From Acidaminococcaceae bacterium (GTDB lineage: Bacteria; Bacillota; Negativicutes; Acidaminococcales; Acidaminococcaceae): a stretch of DNA of 24,000 bases. The notes beneath the pieces were generated by a model that was not told where the DNA came from, did no database searches, and saw nothing but the letters and a program-made list of their open reading frames with translations. Numbering within the stretch: the stretch's first letter is position 1; each line of letters begins with the position of its first letter. Both the position numbers and the translations under genes were made by a program. Of this stretch, positions 1-22,008 are shown in pieces. The stretch spans positions 33,500 through 57,499 of the forward strand of contig JAKVKY010000009.1 in assembly GCA_022484685.1 (NCBI GenBank), read 5' to 3'.

Positions 1-333
1 CCGAGTCTTAGCACTGAAGAAAATCTGGGTGGCAATGCTGGCTGCATAGGCATCTACAACGGCCGTGGTATTGCACTTATGCCGTTTGACCATGTTAGCG
101 ATGGCGATTCCGGCCATGACATCGCCGCCGCAGCTGTTGATGTGGATGGTTAAATCCTTATCCTGCAGGGAATCCAGAGCCTCTTTCACGTCGGCAGGAA
201 AAACATAACCATCTTTAAGACCCCAGCCTTTGTACGCATCATCAATAATTTCACCGGTAATATAGATTTCAGCGGCGGTCTGGGTGATGTTGCGAATATT
301 AATGGCATGGAGCAGTTTAGCTGGTAGAACCAT
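1..333 (-). CDS. Prohead (head-maturation) protease, ClpP/S14-like; 3' part cut by window edge
   Basis: Not in the ORF track because it runs off the window. Reverse translation from the ATG at 333 (AAGGAGG upstream) gives MVLPAKLLHAINIRNITQTAAEIYITGEIIDD...LTIHINSCGGDVMAGIAIANMV. The INSxGGxVxAGxAI pattern is typical of ClpP-type phage prohead proteases. It lies directly downstream of the portal gene, as in HK97-type head modules. Confidence 0.75.
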   Translation of the reverse strand, partial: MVLPAKLLHAINIRNITQTAAEIYITGEIIDDAYKGWGLKDGYVFPADVKEALDSLQDKDLTIHINSCGGDVMAGIAIANMVKRHKCNTTAVVDAYAASIATQIFFSAKTR

Positions 334-1609
334 TGGGATTACCTCCTTTGGGGAAAATACCGGGAGCAATATCACCGGCTTTATCGTTATTTAAAAAACT
401 ATCCAGTGTTGCGAAGCCGCTAGGTACCAGTACAACATTACCATTGCCATGTTCCAGCGGCGGTGCCCCGGCCATACGGCGTCCTTCGTCAATCTTGTAC
501 ACGGCGGATTTTACATAATTGCTGATAATCTGGGATTGCTGTACCGGGTCAGCCCGTAAAATTACGTTGACATTAAACTTAAATTCGTAATTGTTCAAGA
601 CCAAATCTTCCCGCAGTAACCTACGTTTGAGTTCCTGCTCATACAATGAGATGTTATAGAGCAGCGTGCTTACATAAAAACTAAGGTTCTGGGCCGTGCT
701 GTTGGCATAACTGGATTTACTATAGTCGTTGAGGTCATTGGGTTTGATGCCGAAGGCAGCCGCCACCTGAAGGCTGGAATATTTTTTGAGCTCGTAAAAT
801 TGGCTGTCCACTAGTTTCAGATCTAACGGCTGCAGCTTCCAATCATAGGGAAGGGGAATAACCCGGCCACCTTTGGTGTTGGCGATGGTCTGCATCTGCT
901 CAATGATTTTCTTTTTCTTGGTTTCGCTTAAATCACCGATGTAGTTGACCACGGAATTAGCTGTTAAACCGTTTTTATATAGGTCGTTCAGAACTTGGGT
1001 ACTGGCTTTATTGCCGGTCATGTAGTCGGCAATAATTTCATGGACCGGTTTCCCGGCCAGGCCGTCATCGGTACAAATCCAGCTTTTTACGTGCAGCAAC
1101 TGATCAGGACGAAGCCAGTATTCGTTACCGCTTTTGGACGACTGGTACCGGTACATGAATGGCTGCGAGAAATTCTGACCGGTGTTATTAACATAGATGC
1201 TTATCTGGCGCGGATGCAGCGGCAAAAGCTGTCTTACTTTGCCGCCACTGTCACGATCAATGTAGGCGTAGCCGTTGCCCCAATGATTTCGGCATAATTC
1301 CAGATAAGTCCAAAACTGGATGGGAGTTTGTACCGGGTTGGGTTCTACCTGCAGGGCCCAAAAGGAATCATAGTTAGGTCCGGCCGGAACAATCCTTTTA
1401 TCAGCATCTACCAGGTGCAGCGGAAGTTTGCCCAGGGCTTCCGAAAGCATTTTTAAGCAGATAAAATAGGTGATTTCGCCCAAATCACTGCCGTATTGCC
1501 CGCGTAAACCCTGCAAAAAGGAGTTAATATTACTTAAACTTACGGTGCCGGAGTCGATATTTTGCAGCTTTTCGGCACGTTTCAGGATTAATTTGTCCAC
1601 AAAATTCAT
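317..1609 (-). CDS. Phage portal protein (HK97-family-like)
   Basis: 430-aa ORF packed between TerL (4-nt gap) and the protease (17-nt overlap). Size, position and sequence character fit HK97-type portals. The family assignment is from memory of family features, not from a search. Confidence 0.8.
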   Translation of the reverse strand: MNFVDKLILKRAEKLQNIDSGTVSLSNINSFLQGLRGQYGSDLGEITYFICLKMLSEALGKLPLHLVDADKRIVPAGPNYDSFWALQVEPNPVQTPIQFWTYLELCRNHWGNGYAYIDRDSGGKVRQLLPLHPRQISIYVNNTGQNFSQPFMYRYQSSKSGNEYWLRPDQLLHVKSWICTDDGLAGKPVHEIIADYMTGNKASTQVLNDLYKNGLTANSVVNYIGDLSETKKKKIIEQMQTIANTKGGRVIPLPYDWKLQPLDLKLVDSQFYELKKYSSLQVAAAFGIKPNDLNDYSKSSYANSTAQNLSFYVSTLLYNISLYEQELKRRLLREDLVLNNYEFKFNVNVILRADPVQQSQIISNYVKSAVYKIDEGRRMAGAPPLEHGNGNVVLVPSGFATLDSFLNNDKAGDIAPGIFPKGGNPNGSTS

Positions 1610-1613
1610 GGTG

Positions 1614-3446
1614 CTACTCCTTTTTTAGTCCGTTAATGATGTCGCTAAAGGTGTCGTATGCGTCATCATCGGCTTTTTCTTCGTCTGGTTCTTTGTTCAT
1701 AAAGTACAATTTATGGGCGTCAACCATAGCACAGATGGGGTCAATACGTTCTTCATAAGCATTTTTGTCTATCTTTATCTCTGCATAACCATTTTTAACG
1801 GTCATGGCGTTAACGGCGGACCATGTTAACAGCTCGTTGGCCTGGTCATAGAAGATTTCCTGGGCTTTGACGGAAAGAACGATATCGCAGGTGGCATCAT
1901 TCAGGTTTTTAGCGCTCTGGGTGATGCTGGTGATGTCCGCGCCGCCGGCTAATTCTTCAAGCTTGCTTAAAAAGGCGCTGGCATTGGCCGGATCATACCC
2001 GACCCCGATAAATTCAAGTTCGTATTTATCTTTAAGTTCCTTTAGCTCTGTAAAGATGAGATCATAATCTGTTTTAACACCGTACATGCCGCTGGTTGCG
2101 GTCAAAAGTTTTTGATTGACCCAGGCTCTGTAGGGCGCTAGGTCGCTTTGTTCGTGAGCTGGAAGGGCTAATTCCGGCATATAACTATGGCTCCAAACGT
2201 AAATTTTGGGTAAGCCATCCCCAAAAACACTGTCAGGGCCACACCATTTTTCCCGGATATCATCACTAAAATTAGCAGAAACTAGCGGGAATTCCAGTAC
2301 AATACTGGTTAAATCGCCGCCCTGGGATAAGTCGATGCCGAGATAGCACTGGCGCACACCCAGCCTGGTGATAATCTGGTCCAGGGTCCAGCTGGTACCG
2401 CAGCGTTCCCAGGCTCCTATATCCAGCAGCCTGCCGTTGCTATACTTAACCCAGGTATTCAGATGCTTGGTCTTAAAGTTTACTAAATCTTCGCCGCCTA
2501 TTTCCCGGGCGGTAATGGCGCTTTGCGCCAGACGGGCCAGCATATAGGTATTGATGCTGTTGTCCTGGTTCCAAAGGTAGTGAGGATTGGCTTTAGCCCA
2601 GTTGTGCTGGTCCCAGATGTCATCCTTTTCATCCATCTCGGCGATAAATACAAACTGTGTCTCTTTTTTGACGGCGCCGGTTAGAATTCGCTTGCAGAGT
2701 TTATAAAGTTTGTAGCAGGGACCGTTAAGATTAAAGCCTGCAGTGGTAATTACCAGGGTTAGGGCGTTGGTGACATTGATCTGCCCGTCATGCATCAGGT
2801 TGTACATCTGGTTAGTACGGTGCGCGTGATATTCGTCAATGATTGCCAGGATGGGGCGGAAGCCGTCGGCACTTTTGGTATCCCGGCCAATGGCCTTAAT
2901 TTCAGTTCCCGTAACCAGGCTGGTAATGATAACGTCCGACTCCTGGACCTTATACAGTTTCTCCAGGTCCTTGTCGGAACGGATGAATTTCAGCAGTTCT
3001 TTCCAGGCAATTTTGGCCTGGTCTTGTTTGGTGGCCGTGCAGCAGATCAGTCCGTACTGGTACCCGCTCAGAGTAGCAAAGTCGTTGGCAAAGGATCCGG
3101 CCAACATGTCCTTGCCGTTCTGACGGCCAACCTGGATATACGCCTCGCGAAAGCGGCGTTCCTTGGAATATTTGACCCGCCAGCCAAAAATGCAGCCAAC
3201 GATGAAAGCCTGCCAGCCATCTAAGACAAGTTTCTGTGGCTTGGTGCCTTCGCCCAGGGTTAATTCTTCGGCAAAATCAATATGCCTTTCGGCCTCGGCC
3301 GCATCAAAAATATAGGCAAAATCTTTGCGGGTCATGTCGTCAAGGTGGCGTTTGCAGGCCAGGTATTCAGACTCGCCGAAAGGAACTTTAAGCCCGGAGC
3401 AAATAAGCTTGGCGTAGACTGTGGTACGGTCATGTGCCTGCCGCAT
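1614..3446 (-). CDS. terL: Terminase large subunit (Terminase_1 / COG4626-like)
   Basis: 610 aa. Carries a Walker A-like VGRQNGKDMLAG, a Walker B-like ILAIIDEYHAH and the N-terminal DGWQAFIVGCIFGW motif typical of this TerL family. It starts 1 nt after the TerS stop. Confidence 0.9.
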   Translation of the reverse strand: MRQAHDRTTVYAKLICSGLKVPFGESEYLACKRHLDDMTRKDFAYIFDAAEAERHIDFAEELTLGEGTKPQKLVLDGWQAFIVGCIFGWRVKYSKERRFREAYIQVGRQNGKDMLAGSFANDFATLSGYQYGLICCTATKQDQAKIAWKELLKFIRSDKDLEKLYKVQESDVIITSLVTGTEIKAIGRDTKSADGFRPILAIIDEYHAHRTNQMYNLMHDGQINVTNALTLVITTAGFNLNGPCYKLYKLCKRILTGAVKKETQFVFIAEMDEKDDIWDQHNWAKANPHYLWNQDNSINTYMLARLAQSAITAREIGGEDLVNFKTKHLNTWVKYSNGRLLDIGAWERCGTSWTLDQIITRLGVRQCYLGIDLSQGGDLTSIVLEFPLVSANFSDDIREKWCGPDSVFGDGLPKIYVWSHSYMPELALPAHEQSDLAPYRAWVNQKLLTATSGMYGVKTDYDLIFTELKELKDKYELEFIGVGYDPANASAFLSKLEELAGGADITSITQSAKNLNDATCDIVLSVKAQEIFYDQANELLTWSAVNAMTVKNGYAEIKIDKNAYEERIDPICAMVDAHKLYFMNKEPDEEKADDDAYDTFSDIINGLKKE

Positions 3447-3447
3447 T

Positions 3448-3927
3448 TTAGGCCTTTTCTAAATACTTAAGGTATTTGTTAATCTTGTCCTCATGTTTAA
3501 CCGGAACTACCAGTTTAAGACGGTCACTGGTGGACAAGCCTAACTTACTACTGCACTGCATAATTTGCGCAATATACTTTTCTTCGGCCCGCATGTACGG
3601 GCTCAGCACATCGTAAGTATCCTTGGCGCTTTCACGGCTGGCAATCTCGCTGTGCTCCTGGATGTATTGCACCATGCGGGAGTAGCCGCTCCAGGCATTG
3701 GCATAGATGGCCAAAAAGCCCAGGTCCAAATTATCCAGCAGGTTAATGCTGCCGGCTTCCCGGACCACGCGGTCAAATTCAGCACGCGCAATATCGTCAA
3801 GCCACTCCGGCGCAGTTAGCTGGTCGCGGCCGACCTTGAGCTTTTGTTCGGCCTCGGCACGGTCGCTGCGGGCTTGTTTGCCAACTTTGCCTGTGCTGAT
3901 ATCAATTATTTTGCGGTTTCTTCCCAT
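3448..3927 (-). CDS. terS: Terminase small subunit (P27-family-like)
   Basis: The ORF-track entry starts at a GTG (3936). The ATG at 3927 (MGRNRK...) follows an AGGTGA RBS. About 159 aa, immediately upstream of terL. The LTAPEWLDDIARAEFDRV...LDNLDLGFLAIYANAW pattern resembles P27-type TerS. Confidence 0.7.
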   Translation of the reverse strand: MGRNRKIIDISTGKVGKQARSDRAEAEQKLKVGRDQLTAPEWLDDIARAEFDRVVREAGSINLLDNLDLGFLAIYANAWSGYSRMVQYIQEHSEIASRESAKDTYDVLSPYMRAEEKYIAQIMQCSSKLGLSTSDRLKLVVPVKHEDKINKYLKYLEKA

Positions 3928-4044
3928 TTTTATCACCTGTTTGATTTGAAAAAAGTGCCAAAATATTTTTTTGGGATTTCTGGCAATTTCCCGGAATTTA
4001 GGAGGGAGCGGGGTCTTATTTTTCCTTGGTAAAAACTTTTTTGA

Positions 4045-5091: not shown

Positions 5092-5519
5092 GGTTCTACC
5101 TCGTCTCCCAAATAATAAATACGCAGCTTAAGCCAGCTGGCGCTTTTGGATTTGGAAGGAGCGGTATCAAAATCCATATCCCGGGCCAGAGCATACTGAT
5201 CATCGTTATAGACTATGCCTTCCAGCATATCCATGACAATTTTGTGTTGGTTATGCATGTCATGTTTATGGCCGTCATCCGGCCAGCGGTCCCAGAATTC
5301 AACTACAATTTTGTCTTTGCCTCCGGCATAGGGCCATTCCTGGATGCGTACGGCTTGCTTGACAACCCACTGTGCTGCTTCAAACCAGGCCTTAGCCTTT
5401 CCAGTCAGGCCAGAGTGATAACTGCCGCTCTTGGCCGCGTGGTAGTACATGTGGTTTACGGTGGGGGCGACGGGTAACTGGACTTCGAGTATGGGCGCGT
5501 TGTCGCGTAGGTTTAGCAT
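5088..5519 (-). CDS. rusA: RusA-like Holliday-junction resolvase
   Basis: The ATG at 5519 follows GAGGAGGTG. The product has PTVNHMYY (RusA PxxNxxY-like) and HDMHNQHKIVMDMLEGIVYNDDQYAL (compare the RDxDNxxKxxxDalxgxxyxDDsqi consensus, recalled from memory). There is a 4-nt overlap with the downstream activator gene. Confidence 0.6.
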   Translation of the reverse strand: MLNLRDNAPILEVQLPVAPTVNHMYYHAAKSGSYHSGLTGKAKAWFEAAQWVVKQAVRIQEWPYAGGKDKIVVEFWDRWPDDGHKHDMHNQHKIVMDMLEGIVYNDDQYALARDMDFDTAPSKSKSASWLKLRIYYLGDEVEP

Positions 5520-13682: not shown

Positions 13683-13792
13683 ATTGCACTGTGCAATCCT
13701 AATATCTAAAGAATAGCACGGTAAAATATTAATGTCAATAGCACAGTGCAATTATTTTTAGTTATAAGTAAAATATTGTTGCGTTGTGCAAA
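13683..13792. promoter_or_regulatory. Genetic-switch region: three ATTGC-N5-GCAAT-type operators interleaved with divergent promoters
   Basis: Operators: attgcactgtgcaat (13683-13697), atagcacagtgcaat (13738-13752) and gttgcgttgtgcaaa (13778-13792). Leftward promoter: -35 TTGACA (complement of 13733-13738), 17-nt spacer, -10 TATTCT (complement of 13710-13715). Rightward promoter: -35 TTGCGT (13779-13784), 17-nt spacer, TGa-TATACT (-10 at 13802-13807). Confidence 0.65.
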
Positions 13793-13833
13793 GTATTGTG
13801 ATATACTCTAACCAAGTTATAAGGAGCAAAGAA

Positions 13834-14262
13834 ATGAATATTAATAATAAAGAGATTGGAAAAAGGATATCAAATATAAGAGAAGCTGCTGGTTTAAATA
13901 AAAAAGAACTGGCAGAATTGGTTCATGTAGCAGCTTCCACAATTTCAAGATATGAAGATGGCAGTATTGCAAAGATTAAAATTCCTGTAATAAGTGCGAT
14001 TGCGAATGTTCTTGAAATAAATCCTATGTGGATTATTGGTAAATCAGAGATTAAAGACATCAATAACGGTTGTATCAAGGAAAGTGGAGATTTAATAATT
14101 GATGGAAATAGAAGTAAGCCGTTTCAAAAATTATCGAGTGAGGAACGTAGCATTATAAATAAATACCGCGCCTTGGATGAGCGCGGCAAGTTTAATGTAC
14201 GAGAAACCATTGATCGCGAATATGCTTTTGTGAGGCCAGATAGCAAAGGGCAAGAAGCTTAA
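13834..14262 (+). CDS. cI-like repressor, XRE-family HTH, no S24 peptidase domain
   Basis: The ATG at 13834 follows TAAGGAG. MNINNKEIGKRISNIREAAGLNKKELAELVHVAASTISRYEDGS is a classic XRE HTH. The C-terminal half lacks an obvious LexA-type Ser/Lys domain. Confidence 0.8.
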   Translation: MNINNKEIGKRISNIREAAGLNKKELAELVHVAASTISRYEDGSIAKIKIPVISAIANVLEINPMWIIGKSEIKDINNGCIKESGDLIIDGNRSKPFQKLSSEERSIINKYRALDERGKFNVRETIDREYAFVRPDSKGQEA

Positions 14263-14340
14263 AGCAGCGCCTGGCCTGCGCCGGGATTAAGATAGTGAAG
14301 TAAATGACGGTAGGCTGAGTATCGTACAAAGGATAAAGAT

Positions 14341-14703
14341 ATGATTAGTGAAATCGGAGTGTTTTCCCAAACTGTTATTACAACATTGGGCCTGACTATT
14401 GCACCTGGTACTCCTATTTATCTTGGTCAGAGCAACATAATTCATATGAAAAGTAAACATTTAGAAGATTATTTGAAATATGAAGCCTATATCACAGATA
14501 TACTATCTAACCCGGATTATGTGGCCATAAATAGAAAAGACAGCTCAATTGAATATGTTAAATTATTTTTGACTAACAGTGAATATGTTAAGGTAGCAGT
14601 CAGGGTATCTACTAACGGGATTTATTATGCACGTTCATTATACGTTCTTAATGCAAAGAGAGTGCAGAACTTTATAACAGCTGGTACTCTTAAGCCAGTT
14701 TGA
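14341..14703 (+). CDS. Small conserved phage protein, possibly barnase/EndoU/RelE-fold (PBECR-like) nuclease
   Basis: 120 aa, AAAGGA RBS. The block PIYLGQSNIIHMKSKHLEDYLKYEAYITDILSNPDYV...SIEYVKLF...VKVAVRVSTNGIYYARSLYVL resembles PBECR-type proteins as I remember them. The functional call is weak. Confidence 0.45.
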   Translation: MISEIGVFSQTVITTLGLTIAPGTPIYLGQSNIIHMKSKHLEDYLKYEAYITDILSNPDYVAINRKDSSIEYVKLFLTNSEYVKVAVRVSTNGIYYARSLYVLNAKRVQNFITAGTLKPV

Positions 14704-14881: not shown

Positions 14882-14925
14882 CAAGTGGAGTGCTATGGTA
14901 GCGTGAATAAGTTAAAGGGGGCTTG

Positions 14926-15684
14926 ATGATGTATATTATCTTGGCTTTATGCGGAATAATAGTTTTCGTCGGCCTGGTTAATTTTGTTGTGAATACCCCT
15001 ACGCCCAGGCGTTGCCCATATACCCTAAAACTTAACAACGGACAGGACTTTGTTGTAAAAAAAGGCTTGGAAGGTCCGCCCATTGTTGATAAAGAGATTC
15101 TGGCCGGCAGAAAGCTTTGGTTCCGGCTGGTCAAAGATTTTACGGTAATTTGTTTTGATACGGCCAACGCATATCCGGATTCGGTTTGCGCCGTTGGCTA
15201 CGCTGTGGTTAAGAATAATAAAATTGTGGATAATATGTTTTATCTATGCCGGCCGCCTTATGATGATTTTTATAACACCAAGTATAACGGCGTGACTTTG
15301 GCAATCGTCCAAAAGCATCCAACTTTTTTAGGCATCTGGGAACAGATCAGGCCGGTAATCGAAGGCCAGGTTGTTGGCGCTTATAATCTGCCATTTCATT
15401 TTAGCTGTCTTAATGCGGCGCTTAAAAATATCGGCGCCGAAGCCCATTATGCATGCTTCGACATTTTGGATGATGCCAGGCGTTTCCTCCCGGGATTAAA
15501 GGATTATTCCCTGGCAGCCGTATCTAAAATCGGCAACTTTGATAGTTCCCCGGATGCTGGAACCAGGGCGCTCAACGCCGCCAGAATCCAAATCATCATT
15601 AATAAGCGGATAAAGGCAATTCCTTATTATGTAGAAGAAAATAATAAAATTGGGGGCGTGTTGGATGAAGAAAAGCTTGCTTAG
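14926..15684 (+). CDS. Membrane-anchored DEDD (DnaQ-like) exonuclease-fold protein with degenerate catalytic motifs
   Basis: Start is ambiguous (TTG 14923, ATG 14926, ATG 14929; GGGGG RBS at 14917-14921). The N-terminal YIILALCGIIVFVGLVNFVV is a TM helix. Residues ~75-235 align by eye to the DnaQ-like consensus, but with substitutions at the catalytic positions: FDTANA for FDxETT, YNLPFH for HNxxFD, and GTRALNAA for HxALxDA. Confidence 0.6.
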   Translation: MMYIILALCGIIVFVGLVNFVVNTPTPRRCPYTLKLNNGQDFVVKKGLEGPPIVDKEILAGRKLWFRLVKDFTVICFDTANAYPDSVCAVGYAVVKNNKIVDNMFYLCRPPYDDFYNTKYNGVTLAIVQKHPTFLGIWEQIRPVIEGQVVGAYNLPFHFSCLNAALKNIGAEAHYACFDILDDARRFLPGLKDYSLAAVSKIGNFDSSPDAGTRALNAARIQIIINKRIKAIPYYVEENNKIGGVLDEEKLA

Positions 15685-16636
15685 CGCAGCTGTCGTAGCT
15701 GCCATGCTTGTGGTGTCGCTGCCTGCGATGGCCGCAGATTCTGCACAGGTGAGGGCGACAAAGGCTGCTAAGATTGTAGAGGCATTAAAAGACGATAATT
15801 TTGCAAGCTTAGCAAATAAACAGTTACGGATACATCTTTATGATAAGTTGGGAATAGACCTGGGTGGGAATATTGTTTTACAAGAAAAAATGAGAAAGTA
15901 TAGTACTGAAGATACGGATATTTTAGGAAAAAATATTATACAAGATAAAAATATACTAGAAAAACAGCCCATACAGTCTGAAACTAATTTAAGTAATTTG
16001 ACAAACACAGGCATTATTATTGATGATATAAAAGATCAAACGATTTATAAACAAGATGTCGTTTTGATTTATAAATGTGATAAGGCGGTCCTAACGTGCC
16101 AAAACTCCAATAACGATATACCTAGTGCTAGAGCTGAATTTGAAAAAGAGCTTTATAATCATTATGGAAAGCGGTTTGTTATAAAACGTATTATTTATGA
16201 CCCTAATCAATTTCTTGAAAAGAAGGATGCATTTTTGGCCATGGTAAAGCCTGACGAAAATATTCTTATTGTCAAGATAACTTTGGAAGGCCAAGGGTTA
16301 GATGTTAAAGAATTTCAAAATGCCTTTGGCGCTAAAATTGGTGCAACCGTTCCCACTACTAAGGTGCATGTTGTTGAAGGAATTTTCAATGCTCATGAAC
16401 ATAAAGAAGGTTACAGTGATTACGGTGTTAAGGATTATTCGGCCTATACTTATGCGTTGGGTAATCGGATTTATACACAAACAGATCCGCGGAAATTAGT
16501 TAAAAATAATATTCGTGGGTGCATAAGGGATATTTGTAGATTTTATGGTGACCAGGTAAACAAATATGCTAATCCGGTGGGATATCAAAATGAGATAAAT
16601 CGGTATAGTGGTAGGTTCTATGACCTCAAGAAGTAA
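15665..16636 (+). CDS. Secreted protein of unknown function (Sec signal peptide)
   Basis: The ATG at 15665 gives MKKSLLSAAVVAAMLVVSLPAMA/ADS, with a basic n-region, hydrophobic core and AxA cleavage motif. It overlaps the upstream gene by 20 nt. The mature part is Lys/Asn/Ile-rich with no family recognised. Confidence 0.65.
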   Translation: MKKSLLSAAVVAAMLVVSLPAMAADSAQVRATKAAKIVEALKDDNFASLANKQLRIHLYDKLGIDLGGNIVLQEKMRKYSTEDTDILGKNIIQDKNILEKQPIQSETNLSNLTNTGIIIDDIKDQTIYKQDVVLIYKCDKAVLTCQNSNNDIPSARAEFEKELYNHYGKRFVIKRIIYDPNQFLEKKDAFLAMVKPDENILIVKITLEGQGLDVKEFQNAFGAKIGATVPTTKVHVVEGIFNAHEHKEGYSDYGVKDYSAYTYALGNRIYTQTDPRKLVKNNIRGCIRDICRFYGDQVNKYANPVGYQNEINRYSGRFYDLKK

Positions 16637-16681
16637 TAATGAGGTAGGGGTTTATAATGAAAATATGGAGGAGATATTGAG

Positions 16682-18370
16682 ATGGGTGATAATAAGACAA
16701 TAGAACTCCCTTTAGGTAATGATGTAGGTAAAATAATCTCTTTTACAAAAAAGAAACGTCAGCACAAGCCGCTTACGGAGATTGTTTCTATTCATAAATT
16801 ACAAATAACTAAATTTAGACAGTTCGAAAATGTAGAACTGGATTTAGGAGATACAATAACTGCTATAGCTGGTCATAACGCTACAGGGAAATCCACTTTG
16901 TTGGCATTAATAGGTAATAGTTGTGAGTTAAAAGTTAGTGGCGCCGAGAAGCCCTTGATTAAAGAGCAGTTTAGGGCAGAGTTAAGACAAATTATAAAAT
17001 GCTCACTAAAGAATGATATTCGAACAAAACAAGCTATGGTGATTAATTATAAGTTGCCAGGTGGAAAATTGATAGATGTTCCGTTCCGGTTTGGTTGGTG
17101 GGCGAAAGATACAAGACCAAGGCTTGTACCTAAATACAACGGATCTGAATCAAAGTTGAAGTTCCCAGTTTTGTATATTGGACTAAGCCGCTTGCAGCCA
17201 TTAGGAGAATGCGAAGGTAATGTAATGCATTCTAAGGTGTCAGAGTTTTTGGCCAAGCATAAAAATTACAGAGATTGGATTATTGAGAAGTATAAGTACA
17301 TACTCTCTTTACATGAAGTTGAGGGGATTGAAGCACATAAGCATCCTGTTGCCATGCAGAAGGTTTTTGTTGGCGTAAAGAATAAGACTTATGATGAATT
17401 ATGCAATTCTGCTGGTCAAGATAATTTAGGGCAGATACTACTGGCATTTTTATCATTTAAGAATCTTCAAGATAACCATATTAAAAATAAGATTCCTTGG
17501 AATGGAGGAATCTTGCTTGTTGATGAACTTGATGCTACATTACATCCTGCGGCACAGTGTAGGTTATTAGAGGTTTTTGTTAAAGAGATAGAAAAGCATG
17601 ATCTTAAATTGCAAATTGTTTTTACTACGCATAGCCCATCGCTTTTAGAAAGTTTCTATACTTTGCCGGAGTTGAAAAATAATAGAGATAAATATAAGGT
17701 AATATATTTGACACGGGCTAATGGTGATTTGGCAGTAATGAACAATCCGGATTTTGAATTTATCCGTTCTGATATGTTAATTACAGACCCGGCAACTAAA
17801 AGACAAACTAAAATAAATATTTATTCTGAAGACCATGAGGCTAAATGGTTGTTCAATCAGTTGCTTAAAGATACTAACAGGTTATCTAATTATCATATTA
17901 TTAATATGGATATATCATGTTCTACATTAATTAAATTAAATGAAGAAGCTCCTGAAGATTTTTCTAATTCTATAATTCTGCTGGATGGTGATTGTAGAAA
18001 ATCTTTCAATTGTAAAACAATTCCATTCAATATCATTTTTCTTCCTGGGGAAAAACGTCCAGAAAGTGTTATATATGATTATTTAATGAATACTGATGCC
18101 ATGAACCCAATTTTACACAATCCGAATTTTCCGGCAGCGACTAAACGCGGAATTGAAGAGTTCGGACCATTAAGCGCAAAATATGAACATATCCAGGAAG
18201 AGCGTAGCAAATATAAAAAATGGTTCCAAGATAGTGAGTTCTGGTTAACAGGTGATGCAGTTATTGATAGGTGGAAAAAAGATTGCGAAAAACAATATAA
18301 TGATTTCTTAAATCAGCTGAATAAGGTTACGATGAAGCTCATTATCAAAAAAGCTAAAATGTCAAAATAA
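16682..18370 (+). CDS. ABC-type (AAA_15/21-like) ATPase fused to a Toprim-like (OLD / DUF4435-like) domain
   Basis: 562 aa, GGAGGAGA RBS. ATPase motifs: Walker A GHNATGKST, signature-like NSAGQDNLGQ, Walker B GGILLVDELDATLHP, H-loop VFTTHSPSL. The C-terminal third carries IYSEDHEAKW ... IILLDGDCRK ... FLPGEKRPESVIY, arranged like the Toprim E...DxD. Confidence 0.7.
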   Translation: MGDNKTIELPLGNDVGKIISFTKKKRQHKPLTEIVSIHKLQITKFRQFENVELDLGDTITAIAGHNATGKSTLLALIGNSCELKVSGAEKPLIKEQFRAELRQIIKCSLKNDIRTKQAMVINYKLPGGKLIDVPFRFGWWAKDTRPRLVPKYNGSESKLKFPVLYIGLSRLQPLGECEGNVMHSKVSEFLAKHKNYRDWIIEKYKYILSLHEVEGIEAHKHPVAMQKVFVGVKNKTYDELCNSAGQDNLGQILLAFLSFKNLQDNHIKNKIPWNGGILLVDELDATLHPAAQCRLLEVFVKEIEKHDLKLQIVFTTHSPSLLESFYTLPELKNNRDKYKVIYLTRANGDLAVMNNPDFEFIRSDMLITDPATKRQTKINIYSEDHEAKWLFNQLLKDTNRLSNYHIINMDISCSTLIKLNEEAPEDFSNSIILLDGDCRKSFNCKTIPFNIIFLPGEKRPESVIYDYLMNTDAMNPILHNPNFPAATKRGIEEFGPLSAKYEHIQEERSKYKKWFQDSEFWLTGDAVIDRWKKDCEKQYNDFLNQLNKVTMKLIIKKAKMSK

Positions 18371-18426
18371 TAGACTATGGCCAAAAATAGTATTTTGATA
18401 TATACTGTGTGCGAGGAGGTGTTAAT

Positions 18427-19293
18427 ATGCCCCAGACAATGACGCCGCTGAGATACCCTGGTGGGAAGTCTCAGTTGGCCAAATTTATTAAGCACACAAT
18501 TGAATTTAATAATTTGACAGATTCCATATATTGTGAACCATTTTGTGGTGGTTCCGGGGTCGCTATTTCTCTGCTTTTAAGGAATCAGGTTTCATCTATC
18601 ATATTAAATGACCTCGACACAGCCATATACTCGTTCTGGAGAGCTGTTCTGACGGAAACAGATAGATTGACTGAGCGTATTAATACAGTTAGGGTAACGA
18701 TGAATACCTGGCATAGGCAGAAAAATGTTTTCCTTAATTTAAGAGATAACCGTGATTATAGTTTTGAACTAGCTTTTGCAACTTTTTTCCTTAACAGGAC
18801 CAACAGATCCGGTATTATAACCGGTGGCCCTATTGGAGGATATGAGCAGGATTCAGATTATAAGTTGGAGTGCCGTTTTAATAGAGCTGATTTAATCAAG
18901 AAAATAAAGAATATCTCGGTACATAGAGAACAAATCCAGTTATATCATCTTGATGCCATTGACTTAATACACGAAGTTTTATTAAGGCAAGCCCCCAATA
19001 GGTTGTTTATTTATTTTGACCCACCGTATTACGTTCAGGGGAAAAAATTGTACAAAGATTCTTTTGATGATGAGATGCATGGCAGTCTGGCTGATGCAAT
19101 CCATGAGTTGAATGATTATCACTGGATGGCTACCTATGATGATGTAAAAAGGATTAGGGAACTTTACAATGACCTGCAAATCAGGGAATACTCCATTCGC
19201 TATTCGGCAAATGAAAAACGCCAGGCAAAGGAAATATTCTTCTGTAGCCCAGCAACAAGAGTCGAAGATTATGACAAAGTAGTATTTGAATAA
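18427..19293 (+). CDS. D12-class (Dam-type) N6-adenine DNA methyltransferase
   Basis: The ATG at 18427 follows GAGGAGGTG (the track start at 18409 is not ATG). Motifs: LRYPGGKSQL, EPFCGGSGVA (FxGxG SAM site), FFLNRTNRSG and FDPPYY (DPPY catalytic motif). The order matches E. coli Dam. Confidence 0.9.
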   Translation: MPQTMTPLRYPGGKSQLAKFIKHTIEFNNLTDSIYCEPFCGGSGVAISLLLRNQVSSIILNDLDTAIYSFWRAVLTETDRLTERINTVRVTMNTWHRQKNVFLNLRDNRDYSFELAFATFFLNRTNRSGIITGGPIGGYEQDSDYKLECRFNRADLIKKIKNISVHREQIQLYHLDAIDLIHEVLLRQAPNRLFIYFDPPYYVQGKKLYKDSFDDEMHGSLADAIHELNDYHWMATYDDVKRIRELYNDLQIREYSIRYSANEKRQAKEIFFCSPATRVEDYDKVVFE

Positions 19294-19377: not shown

Positions 19378-19417
19378 TTTTTGTCAATACTTTTTTGAAT
19401 AAAAGTATTGACAAAAA
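19378..19417. repeat. Perfect 17-bp inverted repeat with 6-nt spacer (operator-like palindrome)
   Basis: TTTTTGTCAATACTTTT (19378-19394), ttgaat, AAAAGTATTGACAAAAA (19401-19417). The U-run precedes and the A-run follows on both strands, so it is not a canonical terminator. Confidence 0.85.
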
Positions 19418-19436
19418 ACACCAGGGTATGTACAAT
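19408..19436 (+). promoter_or_regulatory. Near-consensus promoter embedded in the right arm of the palindrome
   Basis: -35 TTGACA (19408-19413), 17-nt spacer, -10 TACAAT (19431-19436). Confidence 0.65.
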
Positions 19437-19551: not shown

Positions 19552-20343
19552 ATGGAAGTTGCAATTTTGGTTGATGGTGGTTTTTATCGTCGTAGAGCCC
19601 AGAAGTGTATTGGCGAGAAAACAGCACAGGAACGCGCTGAAGAGCTAATTGAGTATTGTATGCGTCATTTAAACCAGGGACACCAAAAGTATTATGATTT
19701 ATACCGAATTTTTTATTATGATTGTCCGCCCATGAGTAAGAGTGTTTATCATCCATTACTTAAGAAAAGTTTGGATTTTAGCAAAACAGATTTGTTTAAA
19801 TGGACTAATGACTTTTTTGAAGAATTAAAAAAGAAACGTAAAGTTGCTTTAAGATTAGGTAATCTAGCTGATAAGCAGGCATATTTTGGAATTAGACCTT
19901 ATGTTCTTAAAGATATCCTGAATGGAAAACGTGGAATGGAATCGCTAACGGAGCAGGATTTTAAGATTAACGTTGATCAGAAGGGTGTTGATATTAAAAT
20001 CGGTATTGATATTGCTTCTTTAGCTTATAAGAAACAAGTTAGGCAGATTGTACTTATTTCTGGTGATAGTGACTTTGTGCCAGCTGCTAAATTGGCAAGG
20101 CGTGAAGGTATTGACTTTATACTTGATCCTCTTTGGAATCCTATTAAGCCTGACTTATATGAGCATATAGATGGACTTTATACCTGTGATGATATATTCA
20201 AACCTAAAAATTTCAGATATAGTTCAACAAGGCAGGGATGCCAATCAAGTAAGACAAAAGTATTTGTATCCCCATATGATAAATCTTCAGTCCCGTCTCA
20301 GGTTCCGGTTCAGACTCCCGTTCAAGATAAAAAGAATAATTAA
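19552..20343 (+). CDS. NYN-domain (LabA/PIN-like) ribonuclease-family protein
   Basis: 263 aa. VAILVDGGF, VDQKGVDIKIGIDIASLA and VLISGDSDFVPAAKLARREGIDF match the conserved acidic blocks of NYN/LabA domains. The C-terminal tail is low-complexity (VPSQVPVQTPVQ). Confidence 0.8.
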   Translation: MEVAILVDGGFYRRRAQKCIGEKTAQERAEELIEYCMRHLNQGHQKYYDLYRIFYYDCPPMSKSVYHPLLKKSLDFSKTDLFKWTNDFFEELKKKRKVALRLGNLADKQAYFGIRPYVLKDILNGKRGMESLTEQDFKINVDQKGVDIKIGIDIASLAYKKQVRQIVLISGDSDFVPAAKLARREGIDFILDPLWNPIKPDLYEHIDGLYTCDDIFKPKNFRYSSTRQGCQSSKTKVFVSPYDKSSVPSQVPVQTPVQDKKNN

Positions 20344-20490: not shown

Positions 20491-22008
20491 ATGTTAAGAG
20501 CAGCTATTTATGCCAGGTATTCCAGCGATAATCAGCGCCATGAAAGTATTGAAACACAATATAGAATCTGTGAGGACTATTGCCGTCAAAAAGGTTACCT
20601 GGTTGTGACCCACTATAAAGATGAGGCTAAGACCGGTACCATGGTGGCCAAGCGTGACGGATTTGCCCAAATGAAACTGGATGCCGGTTTGGACATATGG
20701 GATGTACTGGTGGTGTATACGCTGGATCGCACGGCGCGCCAGGAACTGGATTACTATTTATATAAGCAAGAACTGCTGGCGGCCGGCGTACGATATGAGT
20801 ATGCCACGGAATCTTTTGACCCCGGTACGGTGGACGGGCAGTTTTTTGAAGGAATTCAGGTGGCGCAGGCTGCATGGTACAGTCGTAAGCTTTCTGTAAA
20901 AATTAAGGACGGCAAAGAAACCAATGCCAAGGACCACTTGTTCCCTGGCGGCAAGCCACCTTTTGGCTATGATGTTACTCCAGAGCATGAATATGTGCTT
21001 AACCAGGGTGAGGCGGTGGCCGTGCGGGCAATTTTTGAGCAATATAATAACGGCCATAGCTATGGGGATATCATGAACTGGCTCAATGCTCGGGGATATC
21101 GTACTAAAAATGGTCAGTTGTTTGGCAAAAATAGCTTGTATGACCTGTTGGCAAATCCTAAATATGCAGGTACTTATATTTACCGCAGACATGCTACAAC
21201 CGGGAAAAAGACAAACAGCCACCGGGATAATCCGGATGCGCTTGTTTATACGAATGCTGTACCGGCTATCATCTCCGCTGCCGATTTTGCCAGGGCCCAG
21301 GAGCGTAAAAAAGCAAACAAGAATTGTGGTATCCGGAACAAAAGCTTCTATTTATTAAGCGGTCTGGTGCGCTGTGGTGAGTGCGGTCATGCCATGAGCG
21401 GCAACAGCGTGAGCCGTAGCCATTATCGTTATGAGTTTTATCAATGCACGCAAAAAATGACCAGAGGAGTGGCTGCGTGTCCCAATATCAAGATTAAGAA
21501 ACAGGAGCTGGAAGAGGCTGTCATAGCCGGCATGCTCAAAATAATGACGGTCCCTAACCTGGACATGATAATTACCCAAGCCACGGAAAAGATTGCTGCG
21601 CAGTTGGACGATACGGCCGAAGATGCCGCCACCGTAACTGCTAAGATTAGCGGACTTAACACTAAACTCAATAATATTTATAATGTAATCGAGTCCGGCG
21701 CCGCCGATGAGTTTGATCTGGCCCGGTTGGCGGATATTAAAAAGCAAATTACTGTTGCCCGGGAACATCTGGCACAGATTAATGCCTTTAGGCCGACGCT
21801 CATTGACAGGGATGAAGTGTTGGCCGAATGGTCAGAATTTGTTCCGGTCTTGAAAAACAAAAAAGATCCGCAAAAATTGCGGACCCTGTTAGGAAAATTT
21901 ATATCAACTATTACTGTATTCGCAAACCGCATAACGGTGCAGGTTGCACTACATTGTAGCGAAAAACTGGTAGCGCTAATGGGAATCGAACCCATGATTT
22001 CGCCTTGA
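20491..22008 (+). CDS. int: Large serine recombinase (prophage integrase)
   Basis: 505 aa, AAGGAGA RBS. The N-terminal AIYARYSSDNQ...ETQ resolvase-type catalytic-Ser motif is followed by a recombinase domain and the zinc-ribbon CGECGH...CTQKMTRGVAACPN, then a coiled-coil region. The last 41 nt of the ORF are antisense to tRNA-Glu. Confidence 0.9.
   Translation: MLRAAIYARYSSDNQRHESIETQYRICEDYCRQKGYLVVTHYKDEAKTGTMVAKRDGFAQMKLDAGLDIWDVLVVYTLDRTARQELDYYLYKQELLAAGVRYEYATESFDPGTVDGQFFEGIQVAQAAWYSRKLSVKIKDGKETNAKDHLFPGGKPPFGYDVTPEHEYVLNQGEAVAVRAIFEQYNNGHSYGDIMNWLNARGYRTKNGQLFGKNSLYDLLANPKYAGTYIYRRHATTGKKTNSHRDNPDALVYTNAVPAIISAADFARAQERKKANKNCGIRNKSFYLLSGLVRCGECGHAMSGNSVSRSHYRYEFYQCTQKMTRGVAACPNIKIKKQELEEAVIAGMLKIMTVPNLDMIITQATEKIAAQLDDTAEDAATVTAKISGLNTKLNNIYNVIESGAADEFDLARLADIKKQITVAREHLAQINAFRPTLIDRDEVLAEWSEFVPVLKNKKDPQKLRTLLGKFISTITVFANRITVQVALHCSEKLVALMGIEPMISP

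Follow-up and report, generated by a model that had tools for sequence, protein, structure and literature searches.

A HEC-04/IbfA-like ABC ATPase-Toprim protein near-obligately linked to a PD-lambda-5-type DNA methyltransferase: a candidate methylation-gated anti-phage pair on a prophage

We describe here a pair of neighbouring genes in a 24,000-nucleotide stretch of DNA from an Acidaminococcaceae bacterium (contig JAKVKY010000009.1, positions 33,500 to 57,499), which is referred to throughout as the window. The first gene encodes a protein of 562 amino acids with an ABC ATPase head and a putative Toprim nuclease domain, and the second, which follows it on the same strand, encodes a D12-class DNA methyltransferase. 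In our assessment there is about an even chance that the two form a two-gene, methylation-gated anti-phage module, which would resemble the PD-lambda-5 system with its effector swapped and would form part of the lysogenic-conversion cargo of a temperate phage. A more specific proposal, that the pair is a true restriction-modification (R-M) system with an ATP-dependent ABC ATPase-Toprim restriction enzyme of the OLD/HEC-04 type, in which the PD-lambda-5-type methyltransferase sets self-recognition, is a reasonable possibility that we put forward more tentatively. The evidence comes from the architecture of the ATPase protein, the conservation of its catalytic residues, its homology to validated defence proteins and a near-obligate linkage of the two genes.

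An earlier note on this DNA, drawn up from the letters alone, had asked whether homologues of the ATPase have a conserved adjacent D12 methyltransferase. In a genome survey, limited to one genome per species, 56 loci carried near full-length relatives of the ATPase; five of these were cut by a contig end, and in 47 of the 51 that left room to judge a methyltransferase homologue adjoined the ATPase, the other four lacking one despite the room. In a survey of 70 loci on IMG/VR viral contigs, the methyltransferase adjoined the ATPase in all 65 testable cases, and the remaining five contigs ended less than 120 nt past the ATPase stop codon. Taken together, 112 of the 116 loci that could be tested have the two genes side by side, in one order or the other, which answers the question in the affirmative. 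The adjacent methyltransferases are 34-55% identical to that of the window, apart from a more distant D12 enzyme (24%) at locus L019. It can be seen that the linked methyltransferase is nearly always on the same strand, usually 15-150 nt away, and that it lies downstream in most loci and upstream in one clade that is coherent in both proteins. The hosts include Firmicutes, Fusobacteria, Actinobacteria, Bacteroidota, Campylobacterota, Elusimicrobia, Proteobacteria, candidate phyla and archaea. Since the adjacency recurs at this frequency, in two gene orders and across many phyla, we reject chance as its explanation. Co-inheritance is also visible among relatives, as the nearest ATPase relative was among the top three methyltransferase relatives in 25 of 42 cases, against 7% by chance. 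A mirror-tree comparison gave an overall r of 0.57; however, this value is carried entirely by close relatives and so was not taken as evidence of deep co-evolution. The NYN gene and the 328-amino-acid protein that flank the pair in the window (see below) are never conserved with it, and they were therefore rejected as parts of the system.

The ATPase gene occupies positions 16682..18370 (all features of the pair are on the + strand) and is preceded by a ribosome-binding site, GGAGGAG (16667..16673), that was read from the sequence 8 nt 5′ of the start ATG at 16682. Its assignment as a HEC-04/IbfA-like protein within the OLD superfamily is based on the open reading frame (ORF), on the Pfam matches and on an hhalign comparison with IbfA. 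The ABC ATPase head, delimited by Foldseek and Pfam, spans residues ~36-345 (16787..17716), and residues 37-323 match Pfam AAA_15 (1e-14), AAA_21 (7e-14) and AAA_23. We used two alignments of the family, one of 43 members with 35-60% identity and one of 47 sequences, among them the most divergent ones. The full ABC motif set that the earlier note had recognised in this ORF is present, with all four motifs in canonical order and their core residues invariant among the 43 homologues. Walker A (GHNATGKST, residues 64-72; 16871..16897) contains K70, which is invariant in 47/47; the ABC signature region (NSAGQDNLGQ, residues 242-251; 17405..17434) has N242, S243, G245, D247, N248 and Q251 invariant; Walker B with the D-loop (ILLVDELDATLHP, residues 277-289; 17510..17548) contains D281 and E282, invariant in 47/47; and the H-loop (FTTHSP, residues 314-319; 17621..17638), with H317, was located as a motif and in the alignment of 47 homologues. 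Just 5′ of Walker B, within the ORF, there is an inverted repeat with an 11-bp stem (TAAGATTCCTT...AGGAATCTTG, 17488-17515), which was flagged by a terminator scan on both strands.

An AlphaFold2 model of the full-length protein was confident (pLDDT 89.6), and Foldseek matched it to the retron Eco8 effector, PtuA, Thermus OLD, Rad50 and GajA at E ~1e-11. These matches are driven mainly by the ATPase head, and heads of SMC proteins were matched too. The best match among PDB sequences was Thermus OLD (6p74, 2.5e-6), and the PADLOC models for AriA matched at ~1e-16, over generic ATPase motifs only. Motif order, conservation, Pfam and Foldseek all place the protein among the ABC ATPases of the OLD/SMC-like clade. 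The family is mid-sized: 560 relatives were retrieved from 5.8 billion proteins, almost all of them 520-560 amino acids long and a few labelled at source as OLD-family endonuclease, and 601 representatives of 50%-identity clusters were counted at E<=1e-10 with the family-specific C-terminal domain.

The earlier note had proposed that the C-terminal third of the protein is Toprim-like, and had held that a lack of conservation of its acidic residues would count against this. Predicted secondary structure, the HEC-04 model and the IbfA alignment delimit a Toprim-like core at residues ~376-470 (17807..18091), with E383/D384/E386, D435-G-D437 and E461, in which the AlphaFold2 model has four strands alternating with helices. 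E383, D384, D435, G436, D437 and E461 are invariant in 43/43 homologues; in the wider alignment the five acidic residues are invariant in 47/47 and G436 is kept in 43/47, a degree of conservation far beyond chance. A helical domain follows (residues 476-562; 18107..18367) that is specific to the family according to the alignment and the model, the IbfA alignment stopping at residue 483; its conserved residues are P496, R508, K512, W514, F515 and W531.

Profile comparisons point to HEC-04, a validated single-gene defence system in which an ABC ATPase is fused to a TOPRIM domain, and to its reported homologue IbfA (Payne et al., 2024; bioRxiv 10.1101/2024.01.29.577857; PMC12111858). HEC-04 was the best PADLOC model for the full-length ATPase (9.5e-20, 68.6 bits), and the C-terminal domain alone also matched it, in 7 of 22 family members tested and at best with 2.7e-7. 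The retron type I-B ATPase-Toprim model, which in the full-length protein spans residues 276-481, was matched by three of the 22 isolated domains (best 2.4e-5). When the family profile was aligned by hhalign with IbfA of plasmid R64, the probability was 99.3% (E=1e-20, ~23% identity) and the alignment was colinear across 378 columns, through the Toprim region, pairing YSED with YVED, LDGD with LDGD and PGEKRPE with PNGVKPE. E383, D435 and D437 thereby align with E317, D371 and D373 of IbfA, whose motif and spacing are those of the residues mutated in HEC-04; in that protein the E319A/D375A/D377A mutants, like K62A in Walker A, lost protection (Payne et al., 2024; PMC12111858).

Other searches of the C-terminal region gave less. 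The C-terminal third of the window protein had no Pfam match, and Pfam gave nothing consistent on the 22 C-terminal domains; DUF4435, the AriB-type Toprim, was matched by only one of these (E=0.02), and the protein does not fall with PARIS AriB or AriA. A search of PDB sequences with the C-terminal profile returned Lpg2149 as its sole match, which we judged to be spurious. With the C-terminal domain alone there was no match to the PrrC/RloC anticodon nucleases, the matches obtained being HEC-04, the retron I-B ATPase-Toprim model and PDC-M12B, the last at chance level (E=0.99). Modelled separately, the isolated domain again gave a pLDDT of 89.6. Its top TM-scores against the PDB (~0.35, E ~0.3) were with the OLD C-terminal regions 6nk8/6njv and PARIS AriB (8ux9, E=0.34), and its top match in the viral library BFVD was an RloB-like protein (E=0.2). 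The best labelled matches are Toprim proteins (BpOLD, AriB and RloB-like); however, generic alpha/beta folds score alongside them and the E-values are 0.2-0.3, so we do not count this search as confirmation. Support for the Toprim assignment thus comes from profile homology and from the conservation of its motifs, no fold match having reached significance. Our conclusion is that the protein, as predicted from its sequence, combines an ABC ATPase with a Toprim nuclease and belongs to the OLD superfamily. The earlier designation OLD/PARIS-type is right as to the ATPase-Toprim architecture, but the closest characterised relative is HEC-04/IbfA and not P2 Old, GajA or PARIS. Given 68.6 bits on the HEC-04 model and 23% identity to IbfA, the window protein probably belongs to a related family rather than to the same one.

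The methyltransferase gene encodes 288 amino acids at 18427..19293. The ORF as listed opens at GTG 18409, but a ribosome-binding site, GAGGAGG (18413..18419), 7 nt 5′ of the ATG at 18427, marks that codon as the real start; the gap after the ATPase stop codon is then 56 nt, as the earlier note had it, and both genes have strong ribosome-binding sites. The protein is a complete D12-class (alpha-class, DPPY) enzyme by Pfam (PF02086, 4.5e-25, 89.3 bits against a cut-off of 22), and it has the motifs RYPGGK, EPFCGGSG, FLNRTNRSG and FDPPY, with D198-P-P-Y201 invariant in 25 homologues. PADLOC identifies it as the B component of PD-lambda-5 (PD-Lambda-5_B, 1.9e-111, over residues 7-290 of 294), and it also matches MTase_II, a REBASE-type Type II model, at 3.5e-93. 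The earlier note had called the enzyme Dam-type and had proposed N6-methyladenine (m6A) as its mark. Its score on the dam model TIGR00571 was 82.7, below the cut-off of 114.85, which leaves it outside the Dam family. A search of PDB sequences at E<1e-3 yielded no structure of Dam, T4 Dam or DpnM, the sole solved relative at that threshold being M.CbeI (7m6b), an alpha-class DPPY enzyme that is annotated as D12 adenine-specific and yet makes N4-methylcytosine at GGCC. Both labels, Dam and m6A, should thus probably be set aside as unproven for the window enzyme.

We also examined the neighbours of the methyltransferase in their own right. Among 80 viral loci classified in a methyltransferase-anchored survey, 23 had an ATPase-Toprim gene, 20 a ParB-like gene (by tblastn) and two had both, and at least seven further neighbours were PD-Lambda-5_A by hidden Markov model (HMM). 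This gives ~25/80 for the ATPase-Toprim partner and at least 29/80 for the PD-lambda-5_A (ParB/HEPN) partner, each including the two loci with both; in the remaining loci the partner was not assigned or the methyltransferase was distant, and a share had neither partner detectable. Partner type was stable among close methyltransferase relatives (40/43). Identity between methyltransferases was 0.46 within a partner class and 0.45 between classes, so that no deep separation of the two classes is seen. In a neighbour survey anchored on the ATPase (~45 loci), the only recurrent third gene was the ParB-like PD-Lambda-5_A, found in six, and ~87% of loci had the methyltransferase only, with no other nuclease. 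At L031 (5998-11752) the ATPase, PD-lambda-5_A, methyltransferase and a serine recombinase stand in a row, which makes a complete PD-lambda-5. At L019 (1627-7290) the ATPase is beside a canonical Type II restriction endonuclease (6e-79), a PDC-S32 protein and a different D12 methyltransferase, and at L052 it is beside a Type I HsdM. The window itself lacks the A component of PD-lambda-5: PD-Lambda-5_A had no HMM match among the window genes scanned and no tblastn match anywhere in the window. From these comparisons it appears that one methyltransferase family serves two alternative effectors, ParB/HEPN and ABC-Toprim, and occasionally both.

Several copies of the pair are broken. The only public contig with the window locus, JGI 3300056808 (Ga0558721_02481; L224), matches the window letter for letter along 9.4 kb, the one difference being an imperfect tandem duplication of 28 bp (GCCCTTGATTAAAGAGCAGTTTAGGTAA; L224 3967-3994). 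Contig comparison places this duplication, which is absent from the window, after position 16948 (16948..16949, + strand), just after Walker A; it frameshifts the ATPase into gene calls of 92 and 471 amino acids and leaves the methyltransferase intact, and it may represent either a naturally occurring off-allele or an error of assembly. The ATPase is also broken beside an intact methyltransferase in L114 and L137, and both genes are broken in L024, L030 and L139. Two of the disruptions are homopolymer frameshifts and hence possible sequencing errors. The frameshifts of L030 (~2650-2660) and L114 (~5150-5180) both fall in A/T homopolymer tracts of one short stretch that follows Walker A (residues ~67-90), and this may be a coincidence, sequencing error or a slippage-prone on/off site. 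We considered a frameshift hotspot after Walker A in L030, L114 and L224 as an on/off switch, but make no claim to it: the events differ in kind (homopolymer indels and a 28-bp duplication) and may be sequencing errors, and the case of L051 was an artefact of a gap of Ns.

If the pair is a methylation-gated module, the D12-class methyltransferase would mark the resident DNA of host and prophage at a short sequence motif, and the HEC-04/IbfA-type ABC ATPase-Toprim protein would stand in for the ParB/HEPN effector of PD-lambda-5, acting on, or being switched on by, incoming DNA without the mark. The two-metal Toprim site (E383, D435, D437, E461) could then be licensed to cut when the ABC head binds or hydrolyses ATP. 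We infer that methylation would protect against the nuclease and that the substrate would be DNA rather than tRNA, and any statement as to which base and motif are modified would be of the same kind. The near-obligate linkage, the lack of any other nuclease in ~87% of the loci and the natural decay pattern support a methylation-gated module.

A number of observations weigh against it. The Toprim fold had no significant structural match when Foldseek was run against the PDB and BFVD, and hhalign to P2 Old aligned only Walker B, with no profile match to the Toprim region or C-terminus of that protein. Deep co-phylogeny of the two genes is absent (r=0.01 for pairs of less than 50% identity), and the divergent homologues L034, L040 and L052 keep every catalytic residue without a cognate methyltransferase. 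HEC-04 and IbfA defend as single genes without a methyltransferase, and such a nuclease therefore needs no methylation for self-control. In the portion of the published record available to us, the related ABC-nuclease systems PARIS AriB and Septu/retron PtuAB are described as cleaving tRNA and not DNA. As M.CbeI is an N4-cytosine enzyme despite its adenine annotation, the modified base is not readable from the family name. With regard to decay, a broken methyltransferase beside an apparently intact ATPase was seen only in L113 (4986-7934), where the ATPase has a 126-amino-acid in-frame insertion in its insert region and the methyltransferase is frameshifted right after DPPY; the asymmetry of three cases to one is too small a sample for significance.

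A potential explanation that would not invoke methylation as the signal is that the ATPase-Toprim protein both senses phage and responds to it on its own, as HEC-04/IbfA or PARIS do, and acts by abortive infection as a back-up layer beside methylation systems. Its trigger would be a phage product (an anti-restriction DNA mimic, an S-adenosylmethionine-degrading enzyme or a methyltransferase inhibitor) and not unmethylated DNA, and the cell would be killed or arrested, possibly through tRNA cutting. HEC-04, which occurs within helicase-methylase-ATPase (Hma) systems, defends by itself, and IbfA gives abortive-like interference (Payne et al., 2024; PMC12111858). PARIS and PrrC are precedents of ABC ATPases triggered by anti-restriction proteins, relatives of the window protein stand beside PD-lambda-5 (L031 and five further loci), Type II R-M (L019) and HsdM (L052), and orphans with intact active sites exist. 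However, in ~87% of loci there is a methyltransferase only, and so no restriction arm to guard, and a lone methyltransferase offers no defence worth backing up. The linkage to one methyltransferase family (112/116) is, moreover, far tighter than the loose embedding of HEC-04, and IbfA in R64 has no methyltransferase neighbour. Such a guard is in our view unlikely, if still the main rival. Restriction and an abortive guard, both of them raised in the earlier note, are inseparable by computation, and we favour the R-M-like reading because ~87% of the loci have no other nuclease to guard.

The pair might otherwise be an addiction module that stabilises the prophage by post-segregational killing, with defence secondary: on loss of the prophage the methylation would be diluted and a longer-lived nuclease would attack the chromosome. 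Behaviour of this sort is established for Type II R-M systems. The pair lies in low-GC cargo flanked by the lysogeny genes and a large serine recombinase, often near prophage ends, and HEC-04 is toxic when induced (Payne et al., 2024; PMC12111858), but relatives of both components have been validated as anti-phage. Addiction would also require that methylation protects from the nuclease, and it would therefore be a consequence of methylation gating and not a separate mechanism; as the principal role of the pair we consider it improbable. There is still less to be said for the alternative of the earlier note in which the two genes are unrelated neighbours, an orphan phage methyltransferase that evades host restriction beside an independent defence gene. 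Phages commonly carry orphan D12 methyltransferases, and a share of the methyltransferase homologues surveyed had neither partner detectable. Against this stands adjacency in 112 of 116 loci, in many phyla and two gene orders, while the flanking NYN and 328-amino-acid genes are never conserved; this alternative, which we hold to be very improbable indeed, is effectively refuted.

The window is that of a temperate phage, with portal and large and small terminase genes at 317-3936 on the minus strand; by megablast the phage backbone has no match to GenBank phages. A low-GC cargo island (34-36%) at ~11.5-20.5 kb interrupts phage DNA of 46-50% GC, and a large serine recombinase is encoded at 20491-22008, beyond which (after ~22 kb) the GC content of 53-57% is probably that of the host side of a junction. 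From the positions of the island and the recombinase, the pair has the lysogeny genes on one side and the integrase on the other, as it does in several related prophages, in which it is also often near the prophage ends. Across the window GATC is depleted, with 40 occurrences where 78 would be expected (observed/expected ratio 0.51), as is CTAG (0.42); other 4-mer palindromes were mostly at 0.86-1.13, with CGCG (0.66) and GTAC (1.33) as outliers.

Other genes of this region were also noted. At 13786-14703 an XRE-type helix-turn-helix protein is followed by a protein with a PBECR3 (Barnase/EndoU/RelE-like) nuclease domain (Pfam 3.6e-22), an arrangement that looks like a toxin-antitoxin or regulator-effector pair. 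At 14923-15684, in the same cargo island, is a DEDDh/DnaQ-like exonuclease (NCBIfam PRK06195, 5e-21) that weakly matches the PADLOC candidate PDC-S48 (1e-9). The 328-amino-acid protein directly upstream of the ATPase (15650-16636) has a signal-peptide-like N-terminus and no match in Pfam, PADLOC, NCBIfam or PHROGs. The NYN-domain protein at 19552-20343 (Pfam 3.3e-10; weak PADLOC HEC-09, 4.8e-4) has its own strong promoter-like site, TTGACA-17-TACAAT (19408-19436), and may be a separate defence gene.

No OLD/HEC-04-type nuclease with a conserved cognate methyltransferase has been described in the papers that could be searched; an earlier mention in a comparative-genomic study is possible. That the methyltransferase is of the PD-lambda-5_B family, which the earlier note had missed, means that defence by a methyltransferase of this family plus an effector has already been validated. 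In PADLOC 2.0.0 the ATPase is not covered by a model of its own family (best 68.6 bits), and of PD-lambda-5 and of Type II R-M, as defined there, one of the two partners is missing from this locus; censuses of defence systems therefore probably miss the pair, which was found in hundreds of protein clusters and many prophages. If the pair is an R-M system, Toprim would be added to the catalytic folds of restriction enzymes, and methylation would become the first defined signal by which a nuclease of the OLD superfamily distinguishes self from non-self. A subfamily almost always tied to one methyltransferase family would offer a simple route, by switching the methyltransferase on and off, into how ABC-Toprim nucleases of this superfamily tell foreign nucleic acid from self. 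The PD-lambda-5 methyltransferase is a hub for at least two unrelated effectors, sometimes both at once, and is a clear case of modular effector exchange.

Of the known systems, PrrC and RloC resemble the window pair as ABC-type ATPase effectors that are genetically attached to methylation-based systems, but the window C-terminal domain has no match to their nuclease domains, and the window protein is paired with a solitary Type II-like methyltransferase rather than with a Type I system. Type II R-M systems share with the pair a nuclease and a methyltransferase that are tightly linked on one strand, in variable gene order and on a mobile element, and the window methyltransferase has a relative in the CbeI R-M system, M.CbeI; in contrast, no known restriction-enzyme fold or model matches the window partner protein. 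To our knowledge, the restriction-enzyme folds described to date do not include an ABC ATPase-driven Toprim catalytic domain. The combination of ABC ATPase and putative Toprim nuclease is that of the OLD family (P2 Old, Thermus OLD, GajA, the retron Eco8 effector and PARIS AriA/AriB), whose members are solitary, accompanied by a UvrD-like helicase or a retron reverse transcriptase, or split as AriA and AriB, whereas the partner of the window family is a methyltransferase. HEC-04 and IbfA are likewise compact fusions of ABC ATPase and TOPRIM with an aligned E/D/D triad. They differ in the C-terminal helical domain and in identity (~23%), and they are autonomous single genes, as with IbfA in R64, which has no methyltransferase neighbour, whereas the window family is near-obligately paired. 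PD-lambda-5, finally, came from a functional selection as an E. coli prophage system with broad protection, listed as 'ParB/HEPN, methyltransferase' and viewed by its authors as a highly compacted prophage restriction-modification plus abortive infection (RM+Abi) system (Vassallo et al., 2022; PMC9519451). Its cloning required a host deleted for the mrr region (PMC9519451), and we therefore take its methylase to be active. The effector of PD-lambda-5 is ParB/HEPN, whereas that of the window is an ABC ATPase-Toprim protein without a ParB or HEPN region; the methyltransferase family is common to both, and each is a prophage-borne pair of genes that consists of a methyltransferase and one large effector.

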